61,134 nt of DNA, filler included, from Sluysia triapertura (GCA_046118255.1; 5 parts of 5 records of this genome joined end to end with filler, not necessarily neighbours in it); one strand, 5' to 3'. Shown: positions 251-61,134, counted from the whole stretch's first letter. Made by a program: numbers and translations. The notes: generated by a model not told the origin, from the letters alone.

Positions 251-1440
251 TGTGGTAGGCTACCAAAAGAGGGTTACACAAAAAGATGTCTTGCAAAAGT
301 TAGAGATTCAATATATGTAAGTGAATACAGTTTGCATACGCAAAACTAATTACATTTGTACTTTTTGAACACTCTTTAACACTAATTCTACCAAAGGTGT
401 TAAAAGACACCTTTTAACATATTTTAATTTGAAATTATTTTCTAAGATCATTTTTTTTCAATTCCTGTTTTTTACTTTTCGTATAATAAATTGTTATCAT
501 TTTTCTTCAGCTCATCTTAGACCTAAATATGCGTAGCTGGTATAGAAATAGGTATACACAAAATCGTGGTATTCAGAAGATGTACCGCTTCACTAACTTA
601 ATTAACACAGGTCGTCAAAAGGTTCAAGAGTTATAATCAATATCTATTGGCAAATGTAAATAACTAAGATTAATTAAAAAGTTTTTGTGTAGTAATATTT
701 AAAATTTAGCATAACTAAAAATCGAATGTATAATTTTACATAAACATCACTTATATATGAAATAACATCACAAACAATTAAATAAATTTAAATTTATTTA
801 CTAAATATTAAGTATAAAGTATAGCATTAAAAATAAACACAAATAATGTCTAATTTAATTGGCTGTACACCTAGGACATAACAGTTCACAAACAGATTCT
901 GGAACATAGGAATCTATTTTCTTCGAACATATCAAAAAAAGTCATAAAACATTTGTAAATAATCATTTAAAATCATGAAATTAAACACACATTTTCAAAA
1001 TTTTAGCAATTCAATCTTACCAAAATAGAAATCGTTCTTATAAAACGTTTTTGATAAAGATACTTTATATTATTACTTTTTAATCCATTTGTCTTTCCTT
1101 CTTAACATTCAATGGCACACCATTATTCTGACAGCTTGCACCAAATGACTCGTTATAACAATGATATGTTTAGTATATCATGAAGCTCTAGTCCACACAA
1201 TAATAAACCGAAATACATTCAAAGTACTACAAAACATACCAAATAAATTATAAAAACATAAAAATAACTAAATTTCTGACTTAAAACCTTTATAAAAGTT
1301 CTATTTGGAAAACCAACAAAATATTATTCAAAATATAATCATAGTAAATCGATATTTATCAAATTAATTGTTTCTACAATCATCAAATAATCGTCAAATT
1401 TAAGACATCAATTGTCTTCCAGGTTGAAAAGCATTTGTTT
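251..1440 (+). mobile_element. Putative end of a TGTGG-family element (right boundary unknown)
   Basis: Starts TGTGGTAGGCTACC, resembling the TGTGGTGGCCAAC ends elsewhere. Hairpin AAAGGTGT-taaaag-ACACCTTT at ~393-414. C/A-rich strand skew. Broken frame 'RFWNIGIYFL' loosely resembles 'RMYENIGYIYLL' of the 14609 copy. Confidence 0.4.
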
Positions 1441-1448
1441 ATTTGTAC

Positions 1449-1508
<60 letters not shown>

Positions 1509-2699
1509 GAGTATTATGAAATCATGCAGAAAATGCTAAATACATAGATTATTTGACTATCCATCATAAAGAAAAATTTGGAATATTTACAATACACTTA
1601 TAAAATCAAGTCAAGTCTAAATTCTGAAGCTTTAGGGTGCTAAATAAAAAGTAAAATTTAGATAATTTCCAAATAGTTCATTGTTAAAATATAACCAACT
1701 ATTTGTAGAGAAAATGTCTTGTTAGAGCCTTGAAAAGATATTGTATAAAAGATATTAATTTAGACAATGTCAGTACCCAAAAATAGAATTTATTTCTTCA
1801 TAGTCTTCAAGTCATTTGACGTTTCCTGTTAATCAGTTATATGTAACAAAACGAACATTTGCGTTTATGCATTTTCATTATCTAAGCGATATGTAGATAA
1901 GGTGTTGTATGAGATATTTTTTTATTTATTCGCACTTTTAAAATAAATTTAACATTTTAATTTCTTTGCCCATGTTTTAGAAATACTTGGTCGTACAAAC
2001 TTTTCAGGTAGACACATTTTAGACCCAATCCGCCCCATTACTAAGAATATAATAAAATTCTGTAATCTCATTTCATTGTAATAGAGTATTTATAATAATT
2101 ATAATTATAATGTAATAATTATAAATTTTGTCTCACCGTCTAACATGACGAAAACATTTTTATGATTTATTACTGTTTCGAATTTTGAAATTGTGAATTG
2201 TTTTATATAGAATTATGATTCATCCATACATTTTCAAAATCAAGATTATCGTTTGATTGTTGATTTTAAATGTGTGCTTGTAAAATGTAACCAAGTAACA
2301 AGAAAGCAACCACTGCATTTAAGTTTTAATATCTTCAAAAATACCTACATTAAAACAGAATAATTTTTACCAAGCCACATTTCACATTTTTGTTAGTGAG
2401 ACGTACTTTTGCTTCTAAACATTATACAATGCTCTATCTTTAGTGATTTAATCTTGAGTTATTTTCAATTTTTTCCGATTATTTGTCATATTCATTTTAA
2501 ATTTTGTAAATGTTTTGAGCGGAAACAATTTCTATTCGTTCAATCAGTGAACAAAACAAAGATGCATCTTCACAATGTGAATTCAGACGAACATACAAAA
2601 ATAATTGTTAAAATAGCGGTTTCTACCAAAACATAATTGACTTTGTAAGGTGTATTAATATTTAACTTTATCATTTCATTACTTACTATTGATCCAAAT

Positions 2700-3433
2700 T
2701 AGATTCACCGATTAATCAATGTAAGACAGTCTGATTATTGAATAAAGATATGGGGAACACAGGAATTCCCCAACTGTATTTCAGCGAAAATCGATAAAAG
2801 TATGTCATTTGTATCTTTCGCAAGAGTATTTATATAAAATTCATAGACGTTCCGCTAGAATTGTGTACTACTTATAAAAAAGCAGTTAATAAAAGTCAAA
2901 ATTGTTCAATTCTTATTTAGCAGACAAAATTCGTTATATTCATTGACCTCTTCGCAGAAAGTACGACTTAGTATGATCAAGTAAAAAAACTGAAAACGAC
3001 CACATTCAGAAAATCAATGATCATGGTGATAAATAGAATAACTGTTCCTTTTCTATGTCAGACTTTCCAACTTAAATATCATAATTTATGCAGGAGACCC
3101 TGTTACAGAAGTTAGAAACAGTTTTCATGTAGATTTTAGCGTTTGTTTTGTTTGTTACATTCTGGAAATTTAAATTTTGCCATGCCTACGCCAATCAGGA
3201 AGTATAAGTCAGCAGACGTTCTAAAATCGTTAGAAAAGCAAAGAAAACACTTTGCAGTTAGTGAAACTCCACGCCGTAGTTGTGTTGTGTGGGCATATGA
3301 TAAAACACTTGTTGGAAAGTATAGAAAAACAAAGACCACAAACGATTGTACAAAGTGTTGTAAATATGTTTGGTGTGTTTATTTACGTACCAAGAATATA
3401 ACCAATTCACAATTCATCTTCATAATTTATTAA
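2700..3433 (+). pseudogene. piggyBac transposase relic (C-terminal Cys-rich domain)
   Basis: RRSCVV...KTTNDCTKCCKYV resembles the piggyBac CRD. Near-identical DNA at ~40857-40910. Left boundary approximate. Confidence 0.65.
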
Positions 3434-4139
3434 ATTTAAATATTTCGTTTAATTAGTACTGTTTTGACATACTCAACTGCACCAATCAAAATATTCATGT
3501 ATACAAAATTAATATTAGAATAGATAAAAAAGCAAAAACAAAAATCAAAAATCAAAAAAATAAAAAAACAAAAAAGTATCTTCACTACCGTCGTTATGAA
3601 TACGAATTTTTAATTCTTAAAATAAACTAAAATATTCTTAGATGTACACTCTAAGAAAAGATGGGAAATTGATCATTTTAAAAATAGTTTACAAAAATTA
3701 TTGATTTTATACACTAAAAATTATGAGAATCAATGCGACTTACCAAAAACAATGATAAATAGATATCTTAGAAGAAATCTATTTATTAATTTAGTAAGAC
3801 CCTTCTATCAAATAAAATAATAATAAAACTGTTTACGTTACATTTTTTATACATACACAAATAACGTGTTTACCACTTCATCCCGAAAACATTAAACTAA
3901 AATATTTTCTTTATACAAGAAACATCATTTAGAAATGGAAAAATTGTATTTTTAGAAAGTAATATAAAATAAACTATTATACTAATGTTGTAATAAATCT
4001 TCAATTTCGTATTCTGGTGACGAATCGATCATAGAGGAATTATTTTTAATTTGATCATATTCTATTAAATTTAATATTTCTGAATTTGGAACAGATTCCA
4101 GTTTTATCGGCTTTGGTTTTGGAACTTCGTTTTTGTTAC

Positions 4140-4197
<58 letters not shown>

Positions 4198-4199
4198 AA

Positions 4200-4560
4200 G
4201 AGAAATTAAATTTACAAAATATAAATAAAACGTCACAAAAATTATTTAAAGTATTACAAAAAAATTTCAAAAATTAAATTTCATTCTAATATCTATTACT
4301 CCGTTGTCGCCGATAATGCGACATTACAAATATAAACTATAAATCAGTGTTTTGCTTACGTTATCAATTTAAAAGAATTCGTTAATGTTACCTATAATGT
4401 AATCTATATCAGTCACAAGGCTGGAGTGGAAAAAGTTTAAAATAATTTTTATTGTAGCTTTATAAGCTAAAAGAAATAACTTAAAAGCACTGGATTTCTG
4501 AGAAATTTCAAAGAAAAAGCTTAAAAAATCAAATAAGATAAAAAACTTACAAGTCAAATA
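4200..4560 (+). pseudogene. hAT transposase relic
   Basis: Broken frames give SVVADNA and CFAYVINL, matching the hAT TDNA and CxxH (CFAHxLNL) motifs. Confidence 0.45.
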
Positions 4561-4621
4561 GAAAAAGGAAAACTAAAATAGAATTAATTTGCAAGTATAT
4601 ATCGAACGGAAATACCTGTAT

Positions 4622-5054
4622 TGTTACGTTCACTCTTTACGCTTTGCTTACAGTCAATCTTATGTTAAATTTTATTATTAATCAATAATTCATAATATGT
4701 TTATAAATTTTTGTATAATATGTTTATAAATTTTTGTATAATATATTTAATACAAATCTTGATTCATTTAATTTAATGCAAATTAAGTAAGATTTTATTT
4801 TAAATTTTAATAATTTTAATACAATAATTTTAAATTCTTTTAATGTAAAGGAGTACGTTCGTTTTAATTTATTATCTTTGTTTTAATTTGTATTGTTTTC
4901 ATGATCCCAAGGTCATTCATTTTGTATAAATAGATAACTATTTTTACCATAATAAACCATAAGTAAATCTTTCTAAAAATCTTTCTTACTCCAAGAGAAA
5001 GAAAAGCTTCCGTAGCTATTTTGATTTCCAGAGGATCCCATTTTTGTTAAGACA
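4622..5054 (+). mobile_element. Solo LTR (~433 bp)
   Basis: TGTTACG...TAAGACA termini. TATAAATAG at ~4925 and AATAAA at 4951. Flanks GTAT/TTAT are an imperfect 4-bp TSD. Related sequence at ~28340-28460. Confidence 0.6.
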
Positions 5055-5308
5055 TTATCTCAGTTTTATATTATTAAGTCTTTTCACAGTATTTATAACT
5101 GTTTATTTAAAATCCACTTAAAATCTGAACATCATCTCGCTACTGCTTCAAAGTAGCATATTAAAATTATTTTGTAAAATCAATTATTTAAGAGATTATT
5201 CTAAGAAAAGATAATCTTTCCAAATTTATATCATAACCTTACATCTGTAGTAAGTTTTTATTCATTTGTTAATAAAATATTTTGCATTAATTGTTAATTT
5301 TTGACGAC

Positions 5309-5499
5309 AGGTTCTAGTAGGAATCTTATCAAAATCTACCAAAATTTCTTTTGTAAAAGGTTCGATTTAGAACCTAATTAAAATCTTTTTATAACCGATA
5401 AAGGTTCATTTTAGGAACCTTATTAAAATCATTAATTTAAAGGTTCAATTTAAGAACCAAATTAAACTATCAACATGTTCAAAGTAAGAACCTCATTAA
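5309..5499. repeat. Array of five palindromic repeats AGGTTC-N6/7-GAACCT-(t/a)ATTAAAATC with non-repetitive spacers
   Basis: Unit starts at 5309, 5358, 5402, 5441 and 5475. Confidence 0.85.
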
Positions 5500-5545
5500 C
5501 CCCTTAATGAACGCCCGTGTTAATACGTTTCTGCGCGTTAAGGGG
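5500..5545. mobile_element. 46-bp piggyBac-type mini element
   Basis: TTAA|CCCCTTAA...TTAAGGGG|TTAA, with a TTAA TSD. Inserted into the TTAA of the fifth palindromic repeat. Confidence 0.8.
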
Positions 5546-5640
5546 TTAAAATACAACTAAAGTGATTTATCATTTTTTGTATTAATAAGAAAATTGAATA
5601 TTAAAAAAGCTTTACCTGAAAGTAGTACATTTAATTAACG

Positions 5641-5743
5641 CCTCCATTTACTTAAAATTTTTGATAGAAAATCCAACGGCTGGCCCTAACCGGTAAGCCC
5701 AGTACGTTGTTGAACTCATGTTAAGCTAAGCGTTTTATTCTAG
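5641..5743 (+). ncRNA. Candidate structured RNA/cis-element, copy 1
   Basis: Homologous to 48434-48531. Stem CAACG-GCTGG / CCAGT-A-CGTTG has compensatory changes relative to copy 2. Confidence 0.55.
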
Positions 5744-6042
5744 AATCGTAGCTCACAGGAAGATATTTTGAATCCAACTAGAAGACGAAAGAGAATTATT
5801 ACGGTTATATGTTTTTTAAATTCTTACCTGTGTTAATAAAATACTAAATTTAGTCTTTTTATCGTTAAAACTGCCATGTTTAAAAGGCCTAAAGCCTAGT
5901 TTAGTAATTAAAAATGTTATTGTTTTAATGTTAAATTTTAATTGCTTTTTATTAAAAGAAATTCCTAATCCTTTTTAATATACAAATAAATAAAAATAAT
6001 TATAATTTATTAATTTTAAAATATAAAAAGCCTTCCCCTTCA

Positions 6043-7436
6043 AAGACGAAAGAGAATTAGGTTGCTAATAGTTTCTCAAGACGACAGTGAAGAAAATAAT
6101 GAACAAGAAAATATTGAAATTTGGAAGAAAATCGAAACAGGGTCCTTTCTTGGGAGACCAGCTGTTCATATTATTTTCAAAGTGTATCTTGTCAAGAGAA
6201 ACATTTTATTTACTGTTTGAAAACCGAATTACGGAACACATAAAATGTTTTGGGAAAAGAATAAAGTTTACATAGAGATAAATTAGAAGCATTTGTAGCT
6301 ATTTTGTATATACGTCGTGCATATGAGCATTAAAATGTCATAGTTTGTATGGAATAAGAAATGGGTATTTTCATTTCTTGCGCTTTTGATAAATTCGCTT
6401 TGGTATCAAAAGTTGACGAACAGATCTTCCCAACTAAAGTTAAATGTAGGTTCATCGATTACATATATGGAAAAAGACGAAACCTGACCGGCATCTATTT
6501 CACTTGGTGAGTTTGTGGTTTACTGGCATTAAACTTTTTCAGAAAAAACCTCTTTAGTTTGAACTCCCAAAATCTACAAAAATATAATAGGATAAAATGA
6601 AACCCTTCTCACTGCAACATGACACATCTTTAACAATTTATGAAAGTAAGCCAAACAAAAAAGTATTTTGACTAAGTTCAAGACATAAATCTGTGCAAGT
6701 GGAAGATAGCAATAAACGTCTTCAAGAAACAATTAAATTTTATAATAGCACAAAATTTGGGATTGATATAACTGATCAAATGGCTAGAAAATATAGTGTA
6801 AAATATAAATGCCGCAGATGGCCTATGAACGTATTTTATAATATCCTCGATTTGATCGGAATAAGAGCATTGGTTCTATACAAAGAAATGTTTTATTCCA
6901 GTTAGAAGAAGAACTCACAGCTGAGTATAAAGAACGCCAAGATAGAACAACAAATATGGCGACATATTCAACAGTAAGATCACTTCCTTTTCAAAAAGGA
7001 AAAAAGCAAATAAAAGGTAATAGAGAAATTAGAATTTGCTCCCAGTGTAAGAAATATGCATGCGGAAGGTTCAGCAACCATTCATATATTGAATACTGAA
7101 TAATGAAATTTCTTTTACAGCGTTTTATTATGATTATCATTTTTTATAATGAAGATTAAATTTTTTGTTGTGCCTTTTATACTTTTTATTTTTTAAATTA
7201 TTAAATTAAAACTCAATAACTAAATAAATTAAAAATATCGATATATTCTCCAATATTATCGCAAGATTACAATAAATTTTCTTTATAATAATAACAATAC
7301 AAATTATTCTTTAATAATAAATCTTTTAACAAATCACTATAAATCACAGCTTATCTATGATAAAGATTTTATAGACATGGATTATTTGACCCGTGCTGTT
7401 AAGAATAGGTATAGATAGACCGACGGTGTGTTTGGT
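6043..7436 (+). mobile_element. Degenerate piggyBac element
   Basis: ETIKFYNSTKFGIDITDQMARKYSVKYKCRRWPMNVFYNILDL at 6693-6905 is the PGBD catalytic C-terminal motif. CRD remnant at ~7035-7065. End ...GGTGTGTTTGGTG followed by TTAA at 7437-7440. Confidence 0.85.
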
Positions 7437-7784
7437 GTTAACATTTTATAATCTCGAAAACACCGACAAACTTTATTTGGACAGTTTAAATTTTGCTAGA
7501 AGGAACTAATGGAAGACCTTATTTAAAAATTTTAAGTTTAAATTCATGAATCGTGGCTGAAATACATTTAAATTACTGAATAGTAAGTGAATTTTATTGT
7601 ATACTCCAAGTTTATGAATTAATGAAGAAATTGTTAATGTATGTAATCGATTGATTGTAACTATATTTAGAAAAGTGTGTCTTATTAATTTGTACGATTT
7701 ATAAATATCAGTTTAAAATTTATTGATTAATTTTTAATATTCGTAAGATTAGGATAAGAACAAATTCTAGCATTCTTAATAATC

Positions 7785-7850: not shown

Positions 7851-9564
7851 CAATTCTTCATATTTGTAAATTTTCCTCTTTTGCTAGAAATTCTGATTTT
7901 GATTCCTGATTCTAATTTCATTTTACTGTTATATATTGTACCAGAAATTAAGATATATATGTATTACTGACAAATACTAATACTACTATTAAAGTATATA
8001 TTTCGTGAGTCGATTGAGACTAATTAAACATCTTATTTTCATTGTGATTATCGTTTAAGTAAAACAAACTTCAATGAAACATTTTATTATTATTGAAAAT
8101 TGTTTTAAGCAGTATTTTTTGTGTCAAATTTTTGTATTTTCTAAATACATTTTCTATATTTAACTTTATATATAACGAACAGTCTAATAAACATTTCTTC
8201 ATAAAACAAAAAAATGTGCTAAAGTATTTATTTTTTGAAATTATCTACTAATGTTTGATCCACTAAGCCTTCTTTGAGTTGACATTAGGTCTGTTTTTGA
8301 AACATTCAAGGCATCCAATTCGTAGTTTTTGTGTCTTTTCTTAACAAACCACTCTTACACTAAGCCATTAGGTTGGTGCATAAATTCGTGCGGTTTTATG
8401 TGTTGCATAGAAAACACACCAACTTCTTGTTTTAACTGATTTGAATTATCTAAATCATTTTAGGCTAACATTCACTTTCATTACTCTCCTTAAAATTCTA
8501 GATAAAAATGAACATTTTCGGCATCTACAGATTTTCATGTCGAACCATCTTTCTGGTGTCAACGTGGATTGAAGAATTTTTCGACAAAAAATCACCAAAC
8601 TTCTTCAAACTTGGGATTTACAAATGGCCAGAACGATGAAAGGAGGTGGTCGATTTTGGCGGAGAATATCTCACCGATTGAGACTGCAATATTTGTAAAG
8701 GAGTTTGAAGTCCAAACACCATTTGTTTTGTAGTTTAATAAAGATTATTAAATTTATATTATAACTGTAAACAAATATTAAATTATTATTGAATGAATTA
8801 AAATTATTAAGAAGTTCTAAATCAATTGTTAAAAGGTTATTAAAGATTAATTTATTTAGTCTTACAAAATCTTAACATTATTAAATTTTCTTTTATTAAA
8901 ATAAAAAAAATAAAATAAAAATAAAATCCGAGAAATGTATTATACATGAACTTTATGTAAATAATACGAATTTGCTTTAATAAACACAGTTTATGTAATA
9001 GTGGATGTTGATATATCTTTGACAATGTTACGATCCATACACTAGAACAAAATTTAAACAGATATGAACATAATGCACTAAAAATGATAATCACCAAAAT
9101 GTAGAAATAAGAATAAAATATGATCATATTTCTTTGAATAAGTTTTGTGTGACTAATATGACATAAAATAGTGATATACACAAGTGAGTTGGAACTAAAG
9201 TAATAAAATTAATGATAACAAAATTATTGATTAGTGAAATTACACATAAAACTATTAATGTAGCAGAATTAGTGAATGTGTGTGTGATGTGTGACAATAT
9301 TATTGTCTCTAGGATATTCAAGAAGGAACTTTTATGTTTAATATCGGCTCTAATTCATTACATGTAGCTATAAATTGTCAATGCAAGAAGACAAAAAATA
9401 AATAGTGATATTATCGCATTAGCTCTTTCAACTAGATCAGTGACATCTTTTTATAAACCTCCAAGAAATCTTATACACCACTTACGTATTAGCCATTAAG
9501 TGAGTAAGTCTAATATCGTAAGGGACTCGCGCAAAATCTAAATAAAACAATTAAATTAAAGATT

Positions 9565-9855
9565 TTAAATCTTCACATATATATAAATATTATCACCTAC
9601 TGTCTGAACTTTAGCATTATTGTTATTACATTCTTCTTTATCTACTTCATATCTATAATTATGTGTTCGAACTGCTTTGTATTTGCAGGAATTCCTTTTA
9701 GCTAAGATATCTTTTATTGAGTTGATACATAGAAAAGTATTGCCTAAATCTAACTTTAATTGAATTGAAGCAGGTAAACAATTCTTTAAATCATAAGAAA
9801 TGATTTCATACTTACTGCTAGATAATTCATTAACTTTACTTAGTATATTATTCAT
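9565..9855 (-). CDS. Intronless 96-aa ORF of unknown function (element cargo)
   Basis: ATG-to-stop ORF with normal complexity, downstream of the hairpin promoter module. Confidence 0.4.
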   Translation of the reverse strand: MNNILSKVNELSSSKYEIISYDLKNCLPASIQLKLDLGNTFLCINSIKDILAKRNSCKYKAVRTHNYRYEVDKEECNNNNAKVQTVGDNIYIYVKI

Positions 9856-10044
9856 ATTTTAGATCGATTAAGCATAAGACTTTTAACTAAAATGATCTTT
9901 TGAAAAATGTTCGTGACTATTGTTCAATTTGATTAACAGAAACAGACTCCAAATTTATTGAAATATTCTGTCTATATTCGTTTGATAAGAAATTCCTTGT
10001 ACGAAAATTTTTAAAAGTGTGATTAAAATTGTGATCATTTGTTG

Positions 10045-10157
10045 TTGACCAATCAAGTGAGAATATTTTAAATGATTATTTAATGGTCAATAAAAATTAC
10101 TGTCTGTCACCATGCAAATTTTCACAAAAACAAATAAAGTCTGAGACATAGTGACAG
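10045..10157. promoter_or_regulatory. Double-hairpin CCAAT module A
   Basis: IR TTGACCAATCAA/TTAATGGTCAA (10045-10090), then IR CTGTCACCATG/CATAGTGACAG (10104-10157). Confidence 0.5.
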
Positions 10158-10485
10158 GTATGAATTAATTTTATGATATATATAATTGAAAAACTGCCAT
10201 AATTTGTAGTTCGGATAACTAAAATTTGTTATGATATTTAATATAATGAAAATAATATAATTTTGATAATAATAATTAGTAATAATAATGATAATAAAAA
10301 TGTAATAATGTAATTAATAATAATAATAATAAAATAAAATTACGCTAATAACAATTAATAAAAATAAAATGGCATACATTTCATAAAAGTCTTCTTTTTC
10401 TTTATTCTTTTACAAGAACTTAATGATTATATATTTGTTACACATAATTCTGTTTTATATAGAATGTATATCATGCATGACTTTC

Positions 10486-10815
10486 TTAGAGTTCTTGCTT
10501 ATTTGTTCTTAACTCTTGTTGAATAAATAAGTTTCTTGTAGTTTCTAATTCTCTGAATGTTTCAATTACTTTACTAATCTTTAGCTCTTTATACAATGTT
10601 AAAGTAACTTCAGCTTGAAGTCGTTGAATTTGATGTCTGAGTTTCAAAATGATTGTAGAAGGAATAATGCACGTCGTAATAAAATAAAAGAAATAAAAGA
10701 AATATGAAAAGAAGTATAATAAAAAATTAATGAAGTTGGAGATGTTAAAATAAATTTCATTTATTTTATTAATATTTTGAAATTTAAAATGTAAATTTAA
10801 TGATTTTTCATGCAA
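10486..10815 (-). CDS. Terminal ORF with a hydrophobic segment and coiled-coil tail
   Basis: Starts ~80 bp inside the TGTGG end. FLLYFFSYFFYFFYF is followed by heptad-like LRHQIQRLQAEV...ELETTRN. Confidence 0.3.
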   Translation of the reverse strand: MHEKSLNLHFKFQNINKINEIYFNISNFINFLLYFFSYFFYFFYFITTCIIPSTIILKLRHQIQRLQAEVTLTLYKELKISKVIETFRELETTRNLFIQQELRTNKQEL

Positions 10816-11009
10816 TTAATAGTTGAAGTGTTGTAAAAATGTGACTTTTAGTGTAATGTGATGAATTAAAATTTTGAATGATAAAGTTGGCCACCACAAT
10901 TTGTTTTTTTCTAATGATTTAATAAATTCATTTTGTTATATGGAATTTTTTTCATGGTTTTTATTCTTAATCAGTATGCATTTTTCATAATTTTAAAAAA
11001 CCACAATTT

Positions 11010-11343
11010 GAAGTGAAGAAGTTATTATACACTCTTTTTGAATCTTTAAACTCATTTTTATTGAAAATATCAACTTTATTTTTTAAGAATTTTATTTATG
11101 ACTCTAAAAGGCTAGATCTCGCTGAGAGTATAAAAGCTCTTAATTTGGTCAATAAAAATAACTTTTCCTACTATTTTTTTCTTATTATTCATTATTCATT
11201 TAAGGGTTGAAAATTGTGAAGTAAATTTTAATAAAATTTGACATTAAAACAAAATGTTTTCTGAGTTTATTTATTATATTTTTGAAGCACCAGTTCCATT
11301 TTTTCAAAAAATGTGGGGATCATTATGTTAGATTGCCACCACA
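11010..11343 (-). mobile_element. Truncated TGTGG-family end
   Basis: Minus strand begins TGTGGTGGCAATCT at 11343 and replaces the mariner right TIR. Confidence 0.45.
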
Positions 11344-12068: not shown

Positions 12069-12450
12069 GGTGAAAGGGTACCAAGTGTTTGTACCTTAAA
12101 GTAGTCTTGGAAGACTTTTTCCGAATTTGGGCGATATTCTTGTATAACGATTTGTTTGAGTTCGTCATAAGGAGATTTTGAAACGATGCACGTTTGAATT
12201 TTTGGATTGATTTTACTTAGAAGTGCTTGTGGTAACATCGCTAGGGTGTGATTAAACTTCGTAGTTTGGTGTTTAATCGCACTGGTTTTGAACATGGCCT
12301 CAACAATCAAAAACTACGTGCTTGGATAACCTGTGTCATCCAAGAAAAATTGAGACGACGGATTACTGATGTTTGTTAATTGATCTTGAACAGTACGTGA
12401 TGGAAGTTCAGGTTCGTCGTCAGTACCGCCAGGTAATTGGTGATTAATTG
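12069..12450 (-). pseudogene. gag: Ty3/Gypsy Gag capsid N-terminal domain (DUF7041-like)
   Basis: PST*FLIVEAMF...TKFNHTLAMLP...PYDELKQIVIQEY...QTLG matches the PxxWFxxxEAxF...TKF...PYxxLK...LGDxxPS pattern. TAG replaces the expected Trp. Confidence 0.8.
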
Positions 12451-14609
12451 ATATGATAGTCCCCGTCTGAAATGTCGTAATCACTAAACCTTAGGTGGGG
12501 ACGTAATGAACGTAATGCCTTACGGCGCCTCGTTGACTTATGGAGTTTTGAATTTTGAGGCGCGAATTTTACTTTTATGTGTATTATTTGATGGTGGCTC
12601 CATTGATCTCAGTGTATACGTGTCGTTCGAATGTCGTAGTAAAGTCAGTTATTGACCCTGGTAAGATTTGTTTTTGCTTTAAAATTGACCGAGGTGTTAT
12701 TGTTTTGGTGTGCTTCTTCTGATTTGTGACTTCCTTCTGAATAATAGGTTCTATTCTGTTTGATTTTTTGATTTGAACTGTCTGAATTCGGTTAGTAGAA
12801 TAAGTTTTCGGTTTGTTGTTTGAGCGTATTCTTAGAAGTATTGACTTGTTTAAGGTTGGATTTCTTAGTCTTTTCGTTTAGTATATTGACTTTAATATTT
12901 GTGTTCTTAGGTGATTGTTTCGATACATCCTTGAATATATTAATTTTTTGTTGGTCTGTTGGTTTGAGATGTTTTGTTGTTTTTGATCTTGGCTGTTGTA
13001 TTTGTTGATTATACTACTGGAAAGTTGTTTGAATGTGTTTTCGAACGTATTAAATTTTTTAGAATCGGATTTGATAATCCTTTGATTTGCATTGGCCTTA
13101 ATGGCACATCTAAATTTGGGACCTTCTTTACAGACTTGTGCGAATGATTTTTTACCATTTATTTTATACTTCTTTGTGGACCAGTTAAATAGTATTTTAC
13201 GCTCCTGGGTAGGTTGTAATTGGATAAACTCTTTTTTATTGTCTTGACTTAATTTGTAGCGCGATTCGAAGATGTGGCTGGGGTGGTGGAAAACCCATAA
13301 CATAAAATTTTATTAAGATTGTGAGTAGGTGTTATCCAAATAAAAGGTTGATTGTTTAAAAGATTTTTGAGTCTTATGATCATGATAAAATTTGTTGTTT
13401 GTTTTGGAAGATGAAATTGGTATTATATTGTTTGTTGATTGTTTAGTGGCATTGTTGTATGTGTGAATATTTGTCATTTTTGTAGAGTTTTGTGATAATC
13501 TATCATTATAGGATGAGTTAATGAGATGATTTTGAATTTGGTATTTGTAAGGCAATTTATCATTTGTTTTAGTTGATGAAAATTTTATTGTATTATGTTT
13601 TAATTGTTCTGAATTGTTATTATTTAGGTGTGTGTTGTTGTTTCTATTCATTGGGAGATTTTGTGAAGACTTGACGTTATTACATGGGTTGATGACATGA
13701 TTTTGTGTTTGTGAAGCTGTTTATTATTTATTTTGGATGGTAAAGAGTGTGTTATATTGTTCTTTGGTTGTTCAAGACTATTATTTTGTACGTATATGTT
13801 GTTTTGTTATTTACAAGATTTAGTGAAGGTTTGATGCTATTGTATGAAATGTCCTGTACTGGATGTTTGTTATATGTTTCGAATAGTAAAGGTTGCAATG
13901 CTTTATTTAGTGGTTATGTGATGACATTATAATGTGTACTGGAGTCGCTGTTTTTATTAATGATTGTATTTATAGATGATTTGATGGTATTACATAAACT
14001 TGTGATGTTTTTCTGTATTTTATCTAGCTTTGTTTTATTCAATTTATGTTTAGTACCTGTTGCGATGCGTGAAGGTATATCGTGGAGTACATTCTTTTGT
14101 AGTTGGAAGGTGATGTTTTCTGTTTGGGTTTCTATTCTGATCTACGTTTATATTCAGAAATGTATGGTTATTTTGTGATTTTATGGATGTGTTAGTTGTG
14201 TTTTGTTGAGACTTATTACTACGATCTGTGAGATTACTAGATGAAAGTATCGATGTTTTGATATTATTATATTTGAGAAGTCTCTTGTGTACAAAATATT
14301 TTTCGAGTGCAGTTTTGATGATACTTTTAAATATATTTATATTGTTATATATAATTTTATTTATATTATTTATATACTTATCGAGAAGATAAATATAGCC
14401 TATGTTTTCGTACATTCTAAAAAGTAATTGTGTTATCTTGAAAAAAGATATAATTATGGGTATGTTAATATTGAATTATGTAAAAAAAAGTGTTTATAAT
14501 GAATTTAAAAATATGAATTGTAGCTTTTGAGGGTGAGTGTAATTTTCCTTTGTTGTGTTAAAAGGAAAATTTTTTTTAATTTATCAAAAGTGAAAGGTTG
14601 GCCACCACA
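12069..14609 (-). mobile_element. TGTGG-family element with a decayed long Gag ORF (runs off the scaffold)
   Basis: End TGTGGTGGCCAACC at 14609. A chain of same-strand N/T/K/Q/H-rich ORF pieces (14050-14415, 13313-13651, 12878-13303) leads into the Gag domain. Confidence 0.75.
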
Positions 14610-17280: not shown

Positions 17281-17947
17281 AACTTAATTTTAATGCATTT
17301 GATTTTATTATTATTGTAGGGAATTCATCACACAAAGTTCATCACAAAAACACTTTACATGTGCACAAATTATTAAACAAATTACTAAACTCATTCAAAA
17401 ACAAACATGATCATCGCATCTAATTATTATTACAATTCAGATCGTATTAAAATACATAATAATTATAGTCATTATTGTCATATAATATGATCATATAGTA
17501 ATAACTTTTATAATAAATTTCAATGTCAACAATTCTGTATTAATAAACAATATATCCACGTAAATGTTACCATTATTATTATTTCTTTTAACTTTATTAT
17601 CAACCTATCTTTCTATTTATATCTAAGTTTATTTTTTAAAATGTTTTAAAATTTTTATGGTTGATAATACTAATATTATTTTGACAATGATGGTTTATTT
17701 TACTCAAATTACTGAATTAAATTTTCCTAAAACACTTTCATGATGTTGTGAACAACAAGACTAATTTATATTCTATTCTTATTGTGACGAATTGTAATAC
17801 TAAAATTTGTATTGTTGAATCGATAGATATTTTCAAACCTCGATATACGTGCTTTATTGTTCGCTATCTATATACATCAGATATTTGGGAATCATTTCTA
17901 AACGAAATTTCACAATTTTTCAGTTCGAAAAGTTTTTCAACCGATTA

Positions 17948-19965: not shown

Positions 19966-21870
19966 AATATTTTTTGCCCTCCACACAACATTTATTGAAG
20001 AGTTAGGCATAATTGCCCATAAATAGAAGGAGTAAGAGAAAACTTTTGCATTAATAAGGGGATTATTTACTTTCAAATTCTGTAGCTGCGTCTAGTATAC
20101 GTTCTAAATCGTAGACTACAGACGAACCCGCTTAAAATTGTTATAAGATTTAGAGTATAATTTTTAATTTAAATTTTAAAGTTTAATTTTTGGAGTTATA
20201 TTTTAAATTTTTCGTCATTATTTGGCCATTTCTGTCAAAAATTTTTTTGGAAAGAAGTATACAAGTTTTACAGATAATCCATTTTTCAAAAGTAACTTAT
20301 GGTGACGTTATTTAGTTAATAATTGATTAAGTATATTGTTTTAAAATATTTTATAATATAAATTATCAATTTTTTTAAAGTAAAATTTATTACAGAATTA
20401 AAGTTCTATAATAATAATTACTAATCATTTATTGGTACTATTATTGTTAATAAATTTATAGAATTGTTGTAGATAAATTACCTAAAAATGTGTTAAAATT
20501 AATTTTGTTGTAATTATAGAATTTTAGTGTTAAAAAATTATTTTTGTCTTCTTTTAAATGCATTGTATCTTGTTATCAAATTGATTATTAATGACTATGG
20601 AAAAAGATATAATATTAAAAAGTGTATAAAATAAACGCAAAAGAATTTTTTGTATAAGAATTGCATTAAAATATATCATGAAGAATTCCGTTAAGCTGTC
20701 TATATTAACCTCCACATTTCAGGATTCAAAATTAGTTTTTTCGACTACGATTTAAAGAATTTCGTTTTAACATATTCAAGGAAAAACTTTAAAGAATTAC
20801 ATATTCTTTTATACCTCCATCACTTGCATTTTCTTTCAAAAAGCGCGTAAGTCCGGTGTCACATAGGTGTCACATAAATCAAAATATATTATTATTAATC
20901 AAATCAAATTTTCACATATATAATATATTAACCCTAATTATATATAGTGTTAATAATTTTTATTATTATCAAACTATAACCCAATAATTTAACAAATTTG
21001 GAATTTCGATAAAATCACAATTTTAAAATGAAAATTCTTTTATAACAATACACCTCGATAATACAAAAAAAACAAATTATTCTTTAATAACAAAACGTCT
21101 TTTATTATCAAATTTAAAATTATAAATCTCTTAAAATTAAAAATCACTACCAGACGTGATACAACTCAAGTAAAATAAATGTTGATGCCAATATTAACTA
21201 AAATATAATGAATAAAAACAAGTTACTAACCCTTATTTTAGTCGGTTGCTAAAGAATAAGCCCCAATTTCACCGATTTCCACAGACGAATTGTGGCATTC
21301 TTCCTAAAGCTAAAAAATTTTCAATTTTGTTACTGTCTTTCCCTATTCTTGTCTTGTTTTGTTCTGTTTGTCTACGCAAATGTAGCAGTTATAAGATCAT
21401 TTTGGAAATTGAAAATTGGACCAGACAGAAATTACAAGGGTACATTCTTTTTATTTGGTGATAGCCGATCAATTGTACTCATCAAATTTCGACAGTAATT
21501 TCCGCCTGAGTCCAATTTCATTATTTTTTAATTATCTAAAGCTAAAGGGATTTGTAGTAAACAATCCCCATTCTCTTCTCAACATCATTAAATTAAAATT
21601 TAATATCATTATTATAAGCTAGTTTATTAAGAACATAATTTGTCAACTTAAATTGAGGATAAAATTAATGGAATATTTTTTTCTATAGGAATCTTTTGTA
21701 CAATACGTTATGAGACAACTACACGTTGCACGTCAAGTTCAATAACATAGTTAGATTAGTATCGCTTTAAACATCAATTTAATATATACTTTACTTATAC
21801 TTACTGAACATTTTTAACTATAATTTTAAATTATAAAAACTAATTAAAATAACTAAGTTATACTTTATCT

Positions 21871-53770: not shown

Positions 53771-55499
53771 ACCCACATCCGTAATCAAATTAAATCTTCC
53801 TACCACTTATTTCGTTTTGCGTCTTAATTATATAAATTTTTAAATCCATTATATAATTATTGCATGCGTTGCAAAGATAATAAAGTAAAACAAATGTATA
53901 AATTATGAATGTGAATGTATAAATTTATGAAATATGATTAATAAGATCAAACCTAACTAAAAGCAAATGAAATGTTTCCTATAGATATCTTCGATTACTT
54001 TTTAATCTTGAAAAGTCAATTATAAATTTATCTCAATTTTATTTATCTTCATGTGACATTTTTCTCTAATTTTAATTTAACACATATGTCGGCAGATTAA
54101 TTATGTTTCGTTTTCATTATATTTTAATTTTACGTTAAAATCTTAAATATAGAAATATTCTTAAAATCTTGAAAATATTTGAATTTTCTATAATTTACGA
54201 TCCGCATTCGTAGTTGTTTAGTCACAAAAAGTAATTGGTCCGTTTTGAAATATTTCAGAAACCATCGCAAAGCATTTTCTTCATAGATTATATTTTAAAT
54301 TATTAATTTATAAAATTATATTTACTATAAACAAAAACAGAAACAATTTAAAACAATTAAAATAACATACTGATTTAAAGAGTAAACAAAAGGTAACCAT
54401 TGCGATTTTTTACTAATGTAGGTACTTAACAAGACTGGAATATGTTTAACATTTAAAAAAGGATCTTTGATTGTTAAACGAAGATATCGCATAAGAGTCA
54501 AAAATTCCATTTCTCCAATTCGTAGTTACAAATCATAAAAATGTTTACTTTTGGTCAGTCTATTTTTACATTTTATATACGACATTTATAAAAGTAAAAT
54601 TATAATTATTGATCTATGACAAAAGTATTTTAAATGAAATTTTTAATGTATTTTTAATTTTTTATTATTAAATTAAAAAGGCTGATAAAACGAAAAGTAA
54701 GAATGTAAAATGAATTAAAATAATAGTACAACAATTGATTATTTTGAAAAATTTTACAAACTATTTATGAATCGACTAATTCATCTCAGAAAATAAAACA
54801 TACAAAAAATTTCTAAAATCGGACACAAATTACATATATTATGCAATGTTGCTGTACCTTAAAAAAACAACTTGGTTCGATTGAGTTCATGTAATCATAG
54901 TCAGGTTTTGATTAAATTTCAGTTTAGAATAGTAAATTTTTCACTTTTGGAATGATTAAAAAATAGTGAATTGAATATTTTGGAGGAGATTCTCGAAATG
55001 AATTTGAAATGTTTGCATAATATTTTCTTTAGGAGACTTAGCTAAAAAATATAAACTGATGTTAAAGCTTATATGAACGTTTTATTTTTGGTATGATTTG
55101 TATAAGACATGCTGAAGATGTGGTATTTATTAATTTCAAGTTATTTCAAATTATAAATAGCAACTAAATTAAGTATCACACAGTAACAGAAAAATTTCAA
55201 TTTATGCTTCTATCCTAAACTGAAATTTATGAACGGAACAATACTTCTGCTACACATGAAAAGTTCAAAGATATGTTTACGGAATAGATTTAAAAATATA
55301 TTTAGAAAATTATCCAATATATATAATAAGAAAAAAAACAATAATAATGACAACGTTTATGTGATTATTATGTTCATTAATACAGAATTGTTGAAATTTA
55401 TTATGAAATATTGTCATAAAAATTATTATTAAAGTTATTATAAAAGTTGTTATTCGACATTTATTATATAACAATAATGGCTATAATTGTTGCACATAT

Positions 55500-55803
55500 T
55501 TTAATATAATATGAATCGTAATAACAATAGCGATAGTTCATGATAATTAGATGGGATGGTCGTGTTTACTTTTAAATGAGTTTAGTAATTTGTTTAATAG
55601 TTTGTGTATGTGAGGAGTGTTTTTATGCGATGAATTATGATGAATTTTATGTGATGAATTCCCTACATTATAAGGATGAGTGTTGTAATGTTGTAAATGA
55701 TACAGATGTGACTTGTTATAATGTAATTTTTTGCCATGAGGTTTGTGTAGATGAATGTTATGATTGATGTGATATATAGGTAGATGTAAGTTGGGCCGCC
55801 ACA
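55500..55803 (-). mobile_element. TGTGG-family end
   Basis: TGTGGCGGCCCAAC at 55803 followed by C/A-rich sequence shared with 17315-17425. Confidence 0.6.
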
Positions 55804-57228
55804 TTCCTATGTCTAATGATCTTATCTTTTTAGAATTTTTCTCCAATGTTAACAATTTTAATACATACGATGTTGAATTTTATTTTCCTACTTTTAAAGT
55901 AATTGTGTTCTTCAATATTTATAATTATTTATTTTATAATTGATTTCAAATACGAATTTTCAAATAAAAATTATATGAATATTTTAGCTCTAAAATAAGT
56001 GTTTAATAATAATTTTGAATCTCGAAGATATTGGAGTTTTCTAACCGTATGGAACATATTAACATTAGATAATTTATAATTTTCTGAAGATATCAAAATT
56101 TTTAACAGACATTCAGCTACCCCAAGAAGATTACAATTTCGACTTTATTTTAACCATTGGACATTCTCGAAGATATTAAAAAAGATATTTCCAGTTTTAA
56201 ATAAAATAAAATTAAATCATTTTACTATTGCTTATATGTTGGTAAAAATAAATTTTTGTAATACTAATTATATTGATTTAGAATTTTCTTAGTAAATATT
56301 TATTATAGTTTTTTGTAGTTTCCTATATATAGAATAAAAATAAAATGGGATGAAATTAGGGCCAACAAGATTAGATTAAGTACTTGGATAGAAGAATTTA
56401 ATTACTATCAAACTCAATAAAGATTAAAGTTGAATAAAATTTGTGTAAAGCCAGTAATATAAAATAAGATTAAGTATTTTCTTGAATATCGGAACACGTA
56501 CAAAATTTAAATAAATCTGAGGAGTTGGAATTTCTATTGAGTACTTCTATCTCGAATAACTGAGACGAGTATTCGAGTTCACATTTCCAGATAAGGCAAA
56601 CATAATAGACAAGGTATAGATATCAATTACAAAGTTAATAAATGTGTCTCCAGTTGAATTCAAGTAGTAATATAAAGTGAGAATATTATTAAACAAGTTT
56701 GAATTAATACTAAAGAATAAGAGTTCATTACACGCACATACAAATTCTACAAAATAAATTAAAAATTGCTAAAATTTTTTTACAGTATAATTTACAAAGT
56801 AATAAAAAATCTCACATTAATATTCAAGATAACTTAAAATAAAACAAACCAAATTGCAACATTTGCTTATTAAACTTTCACGAAATCAATTTCTAAATTT
56901 TTGTTTGAATAACCTAGGAGTACTGTAATTTCCATGTGCGAAGTCCGTACCTACAAAAAAGTTATATAATGAAGTATTTCGTGCTTATGACTTTCGGACA
57001 GATTTTAATAGGATTTGTATTGATAATGATTTTGTTAAATATATTAATATTATATTACAAAAGTAATTCGAAAATTTTTTAAAGTTTTTGAGAATGATTC
57101 AGGATTAATCTTTATAACACAAATTATCCAAGTTTACTTTACATTTTAATAATCACATTATTTTACTTTACTCATAATGAAGTAAAAACCAATTAAAATT
57201 AAAAAATAATGTTTAGTCCAATTTGTCA

Positions 57229-58470
57229 CTAATCCTTATAAGAATACTGTAAGTTGACATAAAATTTAATTATATGAGCTATGTCAAAAGTCTGTAATTT
57301 TAAGTTTTCTTTATAAATAATTAACTTATGAATTTGCTTAAAGGGTTTTATAGTTATTAATTTAGTGTTAACAAAGGCATTTGCATTAAAATTTATATAA
57401 CAAAAATAAAGAAGTGTTGGGTTATATTTTACATCAATGACTATAACAATAAAACTTCTATTACTCAAAAGATAATTAAAATTATTGACTAAAATATTCA
57501 TCCTGGAACACTCTGCCAATTTCATCGATTGTCGCTTCCTAAAATAACATAAAGAATAAGTATCAAATAATAAATGATTATCAAAATATAATATTACTTT
57601 AATTCTATTGTCGTTTAAATATTGGATTGATTGAATGTCCTCTTCATATTTCCTGTAGCGATCTTTGCTTGTTTGATAACGGATTTTATCGAAATCTAAC
57701 ATGGATTGCAAGAGACTTTGAATGCTTTTGATATGAACTTGAAATAATAATGCATTGTTGTTGACACATCTCATTTGATCAACAGAATGAAAATGCTTAC
57801 AAGAATTTCCAAATTTAATGCATTTACCTGACATGTCTGTCTGGAACGGACACTGAAAAGATTTGAACCCATGATCATTGTCCTTATCATCAAAGATAAC
57901 AATACGGTGTCCGACAATATGATGGGGAATATTTGTAGAAGAGAGCATAAAACTGAATTTTCCAAATATATTTATATTTTCATCAGCAATTTTGTTATGT
58001 ATAGATTCATTTCCACCACTTTAAAAAATTAATAGAGTTATTTGAGGAAACCATTTTTTGATGACTCTAGGCAACTGTCTGGTAAAATTTTCAATTACGA
58101 TTAACATAGATTTCTCTTGGTTATGATCATTACTTTGTTTATTTAAAGAAATACGGTCTATAAAAATACCTCCTTGGTCTAATGCGGATTGGCCAATGTC
58201 GTGTGTAGTAATGTATTCAACTTGCCTGTAAGCATTGTGGAAACTTTGACTAATAGTCTTGAGTGTAATTGAACCAATTTCATCAAATTTTGACGGGATT
58301 AATGTTTTTTTTACTAGTATCCTTGAATCATTAAACGATAATTCAACTTGTGGTCGAAATCTAGGTTGTTCATAAGATACAAAATCAATATCATTAGAAA
58401 TAGTCATTAGATTTTGATATTGATTTGTAAGCGATACTTCATCCATAAACTTTGACGATATTTTGAACAT
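57229..58470 (-). CDS. Intronless ~413-codon ORF with a CCCH-type finger and one premature stop (58021-58023)
   Basis: ORFs 58021-58470 and 57229-57948 are in the same frame and the linker between them is open. CPFQTDMSGKCIKFGNSCKHFH. Confidence 0.7.
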
Positions 58471-58633
58471 CTAATGTTTATCCAACACTATCGAAATTAT
58501 AGACTCTTTATATTTTTTTGCACTGCTCAAAAAATTTTTAAACTTGAATAATAAAATAATGAAAATTCTCTTTTTTACTTTTTCTCTGTCTTTTATTGTA
58601 CGAATAATTTTTGTTTGCTTTGAAATTTGTTTT

Positions 58634-58782
58634 TGATTGGACGTCAAACTACATGTACCAATGCAGCACCAACACCAATGTATATGAAAAATGCTGATAA
58701 TTATGTCAGACACTCAGCAACTGTCAACAGTCGACAGTTTATACTATATTTTGATTGAGTTAAATTGAATTACTGTCGACTG
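58634..58782. promoter_or_regulatory. Double-hairpin CCAAT module C
   Basis: TGATTGGACGT...ACCAAT, then a perfect 11-bp IR CAGTCGACAGT/ACTGTCGACTG. Confidence 0.55.
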
Positions 58783-60081
58783 GTCCTAGTTACTGCCACT
58801 AAAATGGTCCTATTTATAAAATGGTAATAATAATGATAATAATTATTATAATAAAATAGTTAATTAGAATAAAATAGTAATAATAATAATAATAAAATAT
58901 TAACAAAGAAATTAATACAATAAAAATCTAAATGTGTATAAATTCTTCTTGATATTTTACACGAACTTTCTTTTATTTAAAAAATTACAAAACATTTCTT
59001 TACATACAATTAAATGAATTTAATTAAGATATAATTTGTTGATTTAAAATACCAAAAATGTTTAAAAGGTGTAAATACTTAAGTGTGAGAGAATTTAGAA
59101 CTTGAAATGTTTTGAATCAATTTTAAGATAAATATTTGCTAATTTAAGGTGTAAATTGTGATTCTAATGTTGCGAGATAAAGAATAAAAATGTTTTATAT
59201 GAATTTTTGAATATACTTTGATGTTTTTGAATGTAAGTAAGGTTTGGATGTTTGAAGATTGTGACTTGAAAATGTATTGAAATGAGAATAGTTTTTTTAT
59301 GGATCTGGAGAAAATAAAATGCGGCAAAGGTTTTGATACATTCTAAAAAGGTAGTTGTATAAAGTTAACAAATGTGATTATGATTCTATTGTTACGGAAT
59401 GTGCGGTATGTTGAATTAAATTAGAAATGTTTTAACTTGGTTTTTTAAGTATATGTTTGATGATTTCCATGTTGAATAAGATTTTATGTTATGGAATTTT
59501 ATATTTAGAATGTTTATAAGTATTCACAATTATGTGTTAAGTATTTATTAAAATTGTAAAAAGGATTTTGTTTGTTAAATTTGTAAAAAGTTTTTTTAAT
59601 TGTTATTATTACATTAATATTATAAAAATATTATAAAAGATTTTAGAAAAATTAAATTAATAAAAAATTATTTTTGTTTTAAATATTACAAAAATTAAAA
59701 TTATTAAAGTTGTTCAAATTAAATAAAGAAGATAAAGAAGTAATTATTTTGTTTTAATTTTTATTTAGGAAAGAAAATATTAAATTATTTTTAAAGATAA
59801 AGAAATTAATAAAAAGAAGATAAAGAAATTAATAAAGATTATAAGCCATATTGAAGGTAAAATTGATATAAATATGATACAAATCGTAGAGAGATTTAGA
59901 AAATTCTTAAGGCAATTAAACTCAAGGAAAATATTGGAATGGTAAAGAAGAGTTTTGTTAAATTAAAAGAAGAGTTCCTGAATAAATTTTTATCTTCCAT
60001 GTCCAAGTAATTAATTTTTGTATAAGTTTTTCTTAACTGTTTCACTTTATAAGGAAACGTAAAATCCATTTTTATTTTAAT

Positions 60082-60424
60082 GCAACACCTTAATACGGGT
60101 TGAGAAAACTCAATTTTAAAATCCTGCGAAACGACCAACTGAGGTTGAGTCAGTTAAATAAATTATTATTTATATTATAATTCTTTATAAGAGTTCCTCT
60201 AAGCATTAATTTTTATTTGTGTTGATTAATATACCTTAAAAGTAACAGAGTGCTTTTAGTCATTAATTTAATAAACTTTTAAAATTCGTTTTGTTGAAGC
60301 AACACCTTAATGTGGGTTGCGTAATCTATAAAATCAATTATCAGTTTTAAAGCAACACCTTAATACGTGTTGCGTAATTATAAAATATATAATTTCAATC
60401 AAACAACACTTCGTAAAGGGTTGT
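60082..60424. repeat. Array of four palindromic repeats GCAACAC-CTTAATAC-G(T/G)GTTGC
   Basis: Units start at 60082, 60299, 60352 and 60403, with non-repetitive spacers. Confidence 0.85.
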
Positions 60425-61134
60425 ATCATAAAGAGTTCCAAGTAATTGGACATAGTCATATAAGATCTATGTCATAAATACATAGTTTTTTCTAACGTTG
60501 ATTAAATTAAGTTATAAAAATCCTAATAGTACGTCTCCAATAGTGGCATAAATCGTATATATTAGGCGAACCGACTTCTTAGATATTTTGTAAGATTAAG
60601 TTTTTTAAAGAAAACACTTGCATATGGAATATTCAGAAGTGGCTTTGTTGTGTGTTAATGAAATAAAATTTATAAATATTAGGTTGACCACCACAATCTA
60701 TTAAATTATTCAGTAGTTTCAGTATATTTCAAAACTTAACTATTAATGTATATTATGTTGAAATTTATCTTACCTTATGCATCTTATCTTGAAAATAATA
60801 TAAAAATATTTTTTATACTGTTTTGCGTGTTTTTAATATATTATTAATGTTTCGTAACTTTATTTGGTTCAAATTGGCACCCATTAAAAAGTTAAATGTT
60901 AATAGTTGTATGGTCTTAGGCCGACATTAAAAATTACAAAATTAAAACGGGTTAAAACTTACAAAATTCATAAATCCATTAAATAAAATAATAAGATTGA
61001 TAAACGTTTATAGTGATAAGTAAAGCGTAATCAGAAACAATAGAAAGCTCTTATGAGTTTTACTTGGAAATACTTCTAAAAATAGACTAAAAATAATTAA
61101 AATAATAAAATTTTACTTGAAAATGTTTCTAAAA

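Follow-up and report, generated by a model that had tools for sequence, protein, structure and literature searches.

The window analysed here, a 61,134-nucleotide stretch of Sluysia triapertura DNA (GCA_046118255.1), consists of five scaffolds of approximately 12 kb each joined by N spacers (1-11968, 12069-24092, 24193-37136, 37237-48304, and 48405-61134) and is AT-rich, with a G+C content of 25%. All results refer to this window only. It contains a series of related termini beginning with TGTGG, one of which bounds unit A, an insertion that holds open reading frames (ORFs) and is the only firmly delimited unit in the window. A sequence-only reading had assigned these ends to one recurring family of giant, cargo-carrying TGT...ACA elements, and the end coordinates that it gave proved correct. 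The features are listed in Table 1.

Element ends in the window

Matches to the end motif of unit A, TGTGGTGGCCAAC, were counted within two mismatches. Five were found against 0.17 expected and none of 100 shuffled sequences reached five, a frequency above chance, with a pattern that was chosen from the same data. One of the five matches (33014) reads CAGTGGTGGCCAAA and is one arm of the inverted repeat of a Tc1-like element (31113-33015). The pattern TGTGG[CT]GG occurs five times (0.40 expected; at most two in 60 shuffles), exactly at the five ends that we consider credible: 10898 (A), 11343 (A2), 14609 (B), 55803 (E), and 60695 (D). All are on the minus strand, and they are distributed over three of the five scaffolds rather than the four reported earlier. 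All five also fit TGTGGYG, the 5' integrase motif described for the CsRn1 clade of Gypsy long terminal repeat (LTR) retrotransposons, although this 7-mer is not enriched by itself (seven occurrences against 2.9 expected; shuffle maximum seven). A firm partner end is known for one of the seven 5'-type ends in the window, two of which belong to a second end type described below.

Similarity among the TGTGG ends, assessed over nucleotides 13 to 63, gave p = 0.01 for A-D, p = 0.03 for B-D, p = 0.49 for A-E, and p = 0.93 for both A-B and A-A2. It stops within approximately 60 nt with nothing deeper inside, and the view that the ends make up one family is not supported. Sequence skewed towards C and A had been described after every end. 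A C over G skew does follow three of the five credible ends (0.57 for A, 0.49 for B, and 0.63 for E, where 2% of background windows exceed 0.5), stepping at 14609 from -0.02 outside to +0.50 inside, but it is low at D (0.13) and A2 (0.03) and is not raised after any of three weaker ends proposed at 251, 19985, and 32713. These three were not retained: 251, on the plus strand, has the motif only (best further similarity p = 0.05 among 45 pairs), 19985 can be no more than the far terminus of unit C, and 32713 falls inside the Tc1-like element. Three further matches were also set aside, namely 33014/33015 (the end of that unrelated Tc1-like element), 34997 (within a dynein exon), and 38331 (no other support).

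At all seven ends (10898, 11343, 14609, 17315, 55667, 55803, and 60695), the second base outward from the 5' TGT is A, a post hoc observation that may reflect a target preference.

Table 1. Coordinates, strand, and supporting evidence for the features of the window.
Feature	Coordinates	Strand	Evidence
Copy of the far-end motif of A, TGTAAAGGAGT; weak candidate far end of A2	4844..4854	+	Motif recurrence
Left half of the mariner MITE split by A (target DNA)	8367..8693	+	MITE match 8367-8696
Unit A, 2,205-bp insertion, ends TGTGGTGGCCAAC...CTCCTTTACA	8694..10898	-	Splits mariner MITE
Decayed orphan ORF in A	9568..9960	-	4 stops/131 codons, p = 0.02; no family
AAT-rich tract, inverted TGACAG pair (10104, 10152), CCAAT box (10049); putative promoter-like region	10040..10400	-	In A
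Terminal ORF of A, 109 codons	10489..10815	-	0 stops, p = 0.002 against shuffles; no family
5' att-type end of A	10886..10898	-	Fits TGTGGYG
Right half of the split MITE (target DNA)	10899..11007	+	MITE match 10899-11000
Second att-type end, A2, TGTGGTGGCAATC	11331..11343	-	Motif match
Broken Gypsy-type Gag (DUF7041), cut by scaffold end	12069..12439	-	PF23055, E 5.4e-10
Long decayed N/T/K/Q-rich ORF in B, ~600 codons over three frames	12587..14475	-	No family
Weak candidate far end of 2,018-bp unit B, GGAGCCACCA, 4-bp flank repeat TCAA	12592..12601	-	Shuffle test
5' att-type end of B, 13/13 identical to that of A	14597..14609	-	Motif match, skew step
Second end type, TGTAGGGAATTC, and terminal segment shared with 55667 (unit C)	17315..17600	+	Sharp start, C>G skew 0.52
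C-ORF1, intact intronless orphan ORF, 346 amino acids	17948..18988	+	No relatives or family
C-ORF2, intact intronless orphan ORF, 282 amino acids	19117..19965	+	Hydrophobic stretch near residue 203; no family
Weak candidate far end of unit C (~2.67 kb)	19972..19990	+	Flank match 4/5 only
Intact mariner-type MITE copy, empty site	26298..26745	+	Comparison with both halves
Second copy of the TGTAGGG end	55331..55667	-	136 nt inside E
att-type end E, TGTGGCGGCCCAAC	55791..55803	-	Motif; skew 0.63
Intronless orphan ORF near D, 413 codons, one in-frame stop, CCCH-like finger	57229..58470	-	2,225 nt from end D
AAT tract, inverted repeats, TGACAG, CCAAT; putative promoter-like region	58600..58900	-	Hairpin z -3.0
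att-type end D, TGTGGTGGTCAAC	60683..60695	-	~60 nt loose similarity to A and B

Unit A and the other candidate units

Unit A lies between the two halves of a mariner-type miniature inverted-repeat transposable element (MITE), whose intact copy elsewhere in the window represents the empty site (92% identity, 363/395, over both halves). Because the MITE is split there, both ends of A are fixed: on the plus strand, the 2,205 bp between the halves start with TGTAAAGGAGT and finish with GGCCACCACA. The target duplication on the sense strand is AAT, 3 bp as found, or AAAT, 4 bp, if a run of four A has lost one A. The insertion has TGT...ACA ends and a short duplication, as in an LTR retrotransposon, which agrees with the earlier proposal of retroviral-integrase-type ends, as does the position of such ends relative to a Gypsy-type Gag (see unit B). 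The far end, CTTTACA, fits six of seven positions of the CsRn1 3' motif MSYYAMA, and the same letters occur at 4844. At 60 nt, terminal repeats of A gave p = 0.88 (inverted) and p = 0.64 (direct); at 300 nt both tests gave p of approximately 0.02 alike, which we read as AT noise. Apart from this noise, the two ends of unit A share no repeat in either orientation, which is what a solo LTR would show. A second LTR copy was not found in its interior. We take A to be, in all likelihood, a long solo LTR or else an element with an internal deletion.

The claim that the elements contain ORFs holds for at least this one delimited unit. The terminal ORF of A, which has no Pfam match above noise, contains a moderately hydrophobic stretch (maximum KD19 1.88). 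A comparable terminal ORF had been described at D, where the stop count is no better than chance (p = 0.67). Pfam domain scans covered 95 ORFs and 24 read-through frames and left out 25 low-complexity or opposite-strand frames of 120 listed; for the ORFs of A and B and for C-ORF2, the family search consisted of Pfam and NCBIfam scans only. Within the scanned frames there was no pol domain, no ubiquitin-related domain, and no MATH, BIR, ankyrin, or BCL2 domain, and no integrase domain was found in units A, B, C, or D. A pol behind the Gag near B would fall past the end of its scaffold. Rfam, tRNA, and NCBIfam scans of the window gave nothing, as did PDB sequence searches for P0001 and P0002. 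The end motif had no match in a scan of viral contigs; one metagenome-contig match (L001) was limited to the 22-nt pattern and was taken as chance.

In unit B, a long ORF begins less than 200 nt from the end at 14609, with three stops in 378 codons against 21 in shuffles and a further 141 codons without a stop. No TGG occurs from 14604 to 13338, so that there is no short LTR plus primer-binding site (PBS) before this ORF. At the candidate far end (12592), the sole standout of seven ends tested, 5 of 200 shuffles reach the score of the flank repeat before correction. A broken DUF7041 Gag with one in-frame stop follows 2.3 kb downstream of the end of B on the same strand. The earlier statement that this copy leads into a Gypsy Gag stands as an adjacency; we infer that the two belong to the same element. 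B may represent the 5' end of an element whose LTR or leader spans 2 kb and bears ORFs; alternatively, it may be a solo unit with the remnant of a Gag next to it. A word search for homologs of this Gag found none.

A second broken Gag lies at 52704-53827 on the plus strand (Retrotrans_gag, E 0.0014), with an N/R-rich tail, a degenerate zinc knuckle, and a G over C skew. No pol was found beside it in the window scans, and it was rejected as part of E, which is on the opposite strand and not linked to it. Gag-scan candidates L002 and L003 (matches of 25-45 residues) were discarded without tblastx support against the window; the same scan also gave L004, with a match in this length range.

The second end type, TGTAGGGAATTC, which was not among the ends reported earlier, opens unit C and recurs at 55667. 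The two segments are 88% identical (246/280), and similarity fades past approximately 340 nt; the ORFs of C are absent after the 55667 copy. C-ORF1 has no homologs by sequence search, no usable Atlas match, and no family. Two single-sequence AlphaFold models were made, with mean confidence (pLDDT) of 33-34 (34 for C-ORF1), and were not used for fold search. No far end of E was found. Among 14 regions compared, no ORF is common to the units except for translations of the shared TGTAGGG segment; the proposed exchange of cargo finds no support in this, and the 17315/55667 pair is equally explained by truncation.

Past its motif, the A2 end shows no similarity to A. As a candidate partner, the copy of TGTAAAGGAGT at 4844 (two copies in the window against 0.02 expected) would delimit a span that, less a piggyBac remnant, a mini-element, and the MITE, amounts to 2,199 bp against 2,205 for A. 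The candidate flanks match at five of six positions, and none of the four pieces of the span aligns to A above shuffles. The pairing of 4844 with 11343 is only suggestive.

Other mobile or repeated sequences were noted as well. A decayed piggyBac remnant (5836-7441) has a PF13843 match at 6672-6902 and TTAA-CAC ends at 5836 and 7441, and related decayed fragments at 2992-3430 and 40747-40907 match each other. A 54-bp hairpin at 5496-5549 with TTAA-CCCC...GGGG-TTAA ends (fold z -3.3) resembles a minimal piggyBac MITE. A repeat of approximately 110 nt, without explanation, is present on two scaffolds (5640-5760 and 48434-48540; 78% identity over 82 nt).

For end D, no far end was found, and it may instead bound a solo unit of 226 bp that has a flank repeat of 5 bp. 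The 413-codon orphan ORF is no more than a possible cargo of this end. It had no homologs among 1.84 billion representatives, and Atlas gave leads at 0.76 only, one of them CCCH. Its CCCH-like finger scores 23.4 bits for PF25427, below the cutoff of 31.1. This sub-cutoff finger, in an ORF 2.2 kb from an end with no partner found, is the only hint of the ubiquitin and RNA targeting that had been suggested, and we do not adopt that suggestion. Three copies of a palindromic unit around ATTAAGGTGTTGC are present at 60060-60370, in the region after end D.

An AAT tract, TGACAG, CCAAT, and an ORF occur in both A and D in the order described by the sequence-only reading, but the pattern is also present at 48146/48065 without an end. 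Three clusters of TGACAG and CCAAT were counted against 0.53 expected (p = 0.014, post hoc), and since the third has no end motif, the pattern may be host promoter grammar. The double hairpin attributed to both promoters stands out from shuffles only in D (z -3.0, compared with z -0.06 in A), and the two promoter regions do not align to each other. The third region (46776-48304, minus strand) has an AAT tract at the scaffold end, TGACAG, and paired CCAAT boxes around an E-box, followed by decayed intronless orphan frames (two stops in 234 codons), a layout like that of A and D without the known end motif.

Other sequences in the window

The element at 31113-33015, which from its CAGTGGTGGCCAAA-type inverted ends we take to be Tc1-like, contains internal repeats of approximately 90 nt at 31972-32225, and a second copy with such ends lies at 34127-34598. 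By eye, the segment 23577-23945 has GC-rich ends (AAGGTGACCA...TGGTCACCTT) and internal GTCCCG repeats and is probably a small hAT-like element. Host exons were recognised at 29477-29884 (Nramp), 34885-36946 (an outer-arm dynein heavy chain), and 37238-38071 (Strabismus/Vang). The dynein is closest to DNAH5-type outer-arm chains, from which we conclude that the host is an animal that has motile cilia or flagella, possibly a planarian.

Origin of the units

Comparisons with described elements refer to the cited passages of each source. For the CsRn1 clade these give the integrase motifs TGTGGYG (5') and MSYYAMA (3'), a mean LTR length of 330 bp, and an integrase specificity that resides in the terminal 8-15 bp (PMC3601003), together with a 4-bp duplication, a tRNA-Trp PBS, and a CHCC Gag as marks of the clade (PMC2582038). 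The clade is recorded from flatworms, an annelid, cephalopods, and insects (PMC2582038, PMC12471100, PMC12801592, PMC8220671). The window resembles it in the 5' motif at five of five ends; the far end of A fits the 3' motif at six of seven positions, and its duplication would be 4 bp if one slip occurred. It differs in length: in the elements compared (CsRn1, PwRn1, AgCR, and CsRn1_Cv1), LTRs are 146-383 bp and the cited passages mention no ORFs in them (PMC3601003, PMC2582038, PMC3630058), whereas A is 2,205 bp with ORFs and no inner LTR copy. We therefore speak of CsRn1-like ends and do not file them as CsRn1 members, because the PBS was not found, the scaffold cuts the Gag before its C-terminus, and there is no reverse transcriptase in the window. 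The cited parts of two further sources (PMC5408684, PMC11410931) leave this reading unchanged.

Multi-kb LTRs and orphan ORFs beside gag-pol are known from other elements. Ogre has LTRs of 1.9-6.5 kb and one or two extra ORFs (PMC6431247), Retrosat2 has an LTR of more than 3.2 kb and an orphan ORF0 (PMC3485330), and one study describes an Osvaldo-type (Isis-like) element with 2.57-kb LTRs as well as a CsRn1 element with 180-bp LTRs (PMC3630058). These long-LTR elements belong to other clades or hosts, and the extra ORFs of Ogre are in the internal region, outside the LTR. Within the open full-text literature, we found no description of long or ORF-bearing LTRs in the CsRn1 group. Genes in or overlapping the U3 part of the LTR are familiar from retroviruses, such as sag of mouse mammary tumour virus, nef of human immunodeficiency virus, and the accessory genes of foamy viruses. 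They share with our units a gene inside an LTR; they are vertebrate and encode characterised proteins, whereas here the ORFs are orphans and their LTR location is putative.

We consider it likely that the ends are termini of the integrase type and that they stem from several Gypsy families, diverged from one another and CsRn1-like. The best full reading, which we hold with slightly better than even confidence and mainly because of unit A and the layout of B, is that the LTRs themselves are approximately 2-2.7 kb long and carry orphan ORFs. Unit A would then likely be a solo LTR some six times the usual CsRn1 length. Similar-sized weak candidate units recur (2,199, 2,018, and approximately 2,670 bp), and the ORFs are far beyond chance for 75% AT DNA.

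Under this long-LTR reading, the insertion of A into the MITE, with its TGT...ACA ends and short duplication, would have been made by a Gypsy integrase, as established LTR biology suggests. Because integrase reads only the terminal 8-15 bp, 13 nt could stay fixed while the interiors of the families no longer align. Two long LTRs would have flanked gag-pol, and recombination between them would have left A as a solo unit, with B as the 5' end of such an element or as the solo unit beside a Gag remnant. The ORFs lie inside the unit, on the strand reading in from the TGTGG end, in A and presumably also in B, C, and D. An internal host-type promoter (TGACAG and CCAAT) would transcribe them, so that a solo LTR leaves an expressible orphan gene, and most copies in the window would have decayed since. 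A broader version, in which a CsRn1-like radiation has 2-2.7-kb LTRs with their own promoter and family-specific intronless orphan genes, each solo LTR dropping an expressible gene, is conceivable and seems to us doubtful.

Several observations weigh against LTRs of this length. No paired LTRs, PBS, polypurine tract, or pol were found in the window. Downstream of the candidate LTR ends, the sense strand has no tRNA-Trp-like PBS at up to two mismatches (two loose matches lie on the opposite strand or have no relation to an end); a solo LTR would not be followed by one, and B should have one. That DUF7041 is a CsRn1-type Gag is our assumption. The duplication of A is 3 bp as found where the clade rule is 4 bp, the weak far ends of B, C, and A2 give differing duplication lengths, and the known CsRn1 LTRs in the cited passages reach only 146-383 bp. 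The promoter pattern recurs away from any visible end, D may be a solo LTR of only 226 bp that has no relation to the ORF at a distance of 2.2 kb, and for A an internal deletion or a compound insertion would be an equally good explanation. In a rival account, ordinary CsRn1-type elements have short LTRs, A is deleted or compound, and the ORFs that lie near the ends of C and D are genes of the host or of unrelated mobile DNA. It gains from the loss of TGTGG-end similarity at approximately 60 nt, from the 226-bp candidate at D with its 5-bp flank repeat, from the absence of a common ORF and of the ORFs of C after the second TGTAGGG copy, and from the promoter pattern and orphan frames at 46776-48150 without an end motif. 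We nevertheless find it unlikely: the boundaries of A fixed by the MITE enclose ORFs with no second LTR copy inside, and in B an ORF less than 200 nt from the end, with no TGG for 1.2 kb, leaves no room for a short LTR plus PBS.

The sequence-only reading had instead envisaged one family of giant elements like Burro that swap accessory cargo directed against ubiquitin and RNA pathways, which we judge improbable. Burro (GYPSM1) of planarians is, like these units, tied to Gypsy with accessory ORFs in an AT-rich invertebrate; it exceeds 30 kb and encodes a polyprotein of approximately 4,900 amino acids with an N-terminal Gag, MATH, BIR, BCL2, ankyrin, and Env, and ubiquitin-related domains are described for it (PMC6431247). 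The two TGTAGGG copies that share approximately 340 nt and then diverge, and the one CCCH-like finger near D, could be taken in its favour. Other observations speak against it. The Pfam scans found no MATH, BIR, BCL2, ankyrin, or Env domain, and on these scaffolds of approximately 12 kb no unit above 2.7 kb is delimited (2.2 kb for the firm one, 2.0-2.7 kb for the weaker candidates). The interiors are unrelated, the DUF7041 Gag lies 2.3 kb in rather than at the N-terminus, and by their motif the ends are closer to the CsRn1 clade. About equally improbable as a source are non-autonomous DNA transposons that would have asymmetric ends, carry captured genes, and be moved by an integrase like that of Ginger or IS3/IS481. 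All ends fit TGTNR, which Ginger elements share with Gypsy, Ginger1 and Ginger2 also capture extra domains, and the 3-5-bp duplications and TG...CA ends of IS3/IS481 would suit the 3 bp of A; yet Ginger elements require a transposase and terminal inverted repeats of approximately 40-270 bp (PMC2836005), and here no transposase was found, the ends of A, C, and A2 show inverted repeats no better than AT noise, and what follows the end of B is a Gag. Least credible of all is that the motif is TG plus an 11-nt tRNA PBS (TGG and 8 nt) and the units are internal regions minus their 5' LTR. In its favour, B has a short leader directly after the motif and then a long ORF and Gag, the arrangement seen behind a PBS, and the conserved block is as long as what we take to be a short PBS. 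At A, the MITE target directly adjoins the TG, which makes the motif a terminus, and it matches the published att motif (PMC3601003).

If the ORFs fall outside short LTRs, the window holds nothing more unusual than decayed transposons nested in one another. Should the long unit with its ORFs prove to be an LTR, an invertebrate Gypsy lineage would carry accessory genes in its LTR, as some retroviruses do. This would be a concrete route to the birth of orphan genes, with intact ORFs of 346 and 282 amino acids and one of 413 codons in this window, the two searched by sequence (C-ORF1 and the ORF near D) being without relatives.

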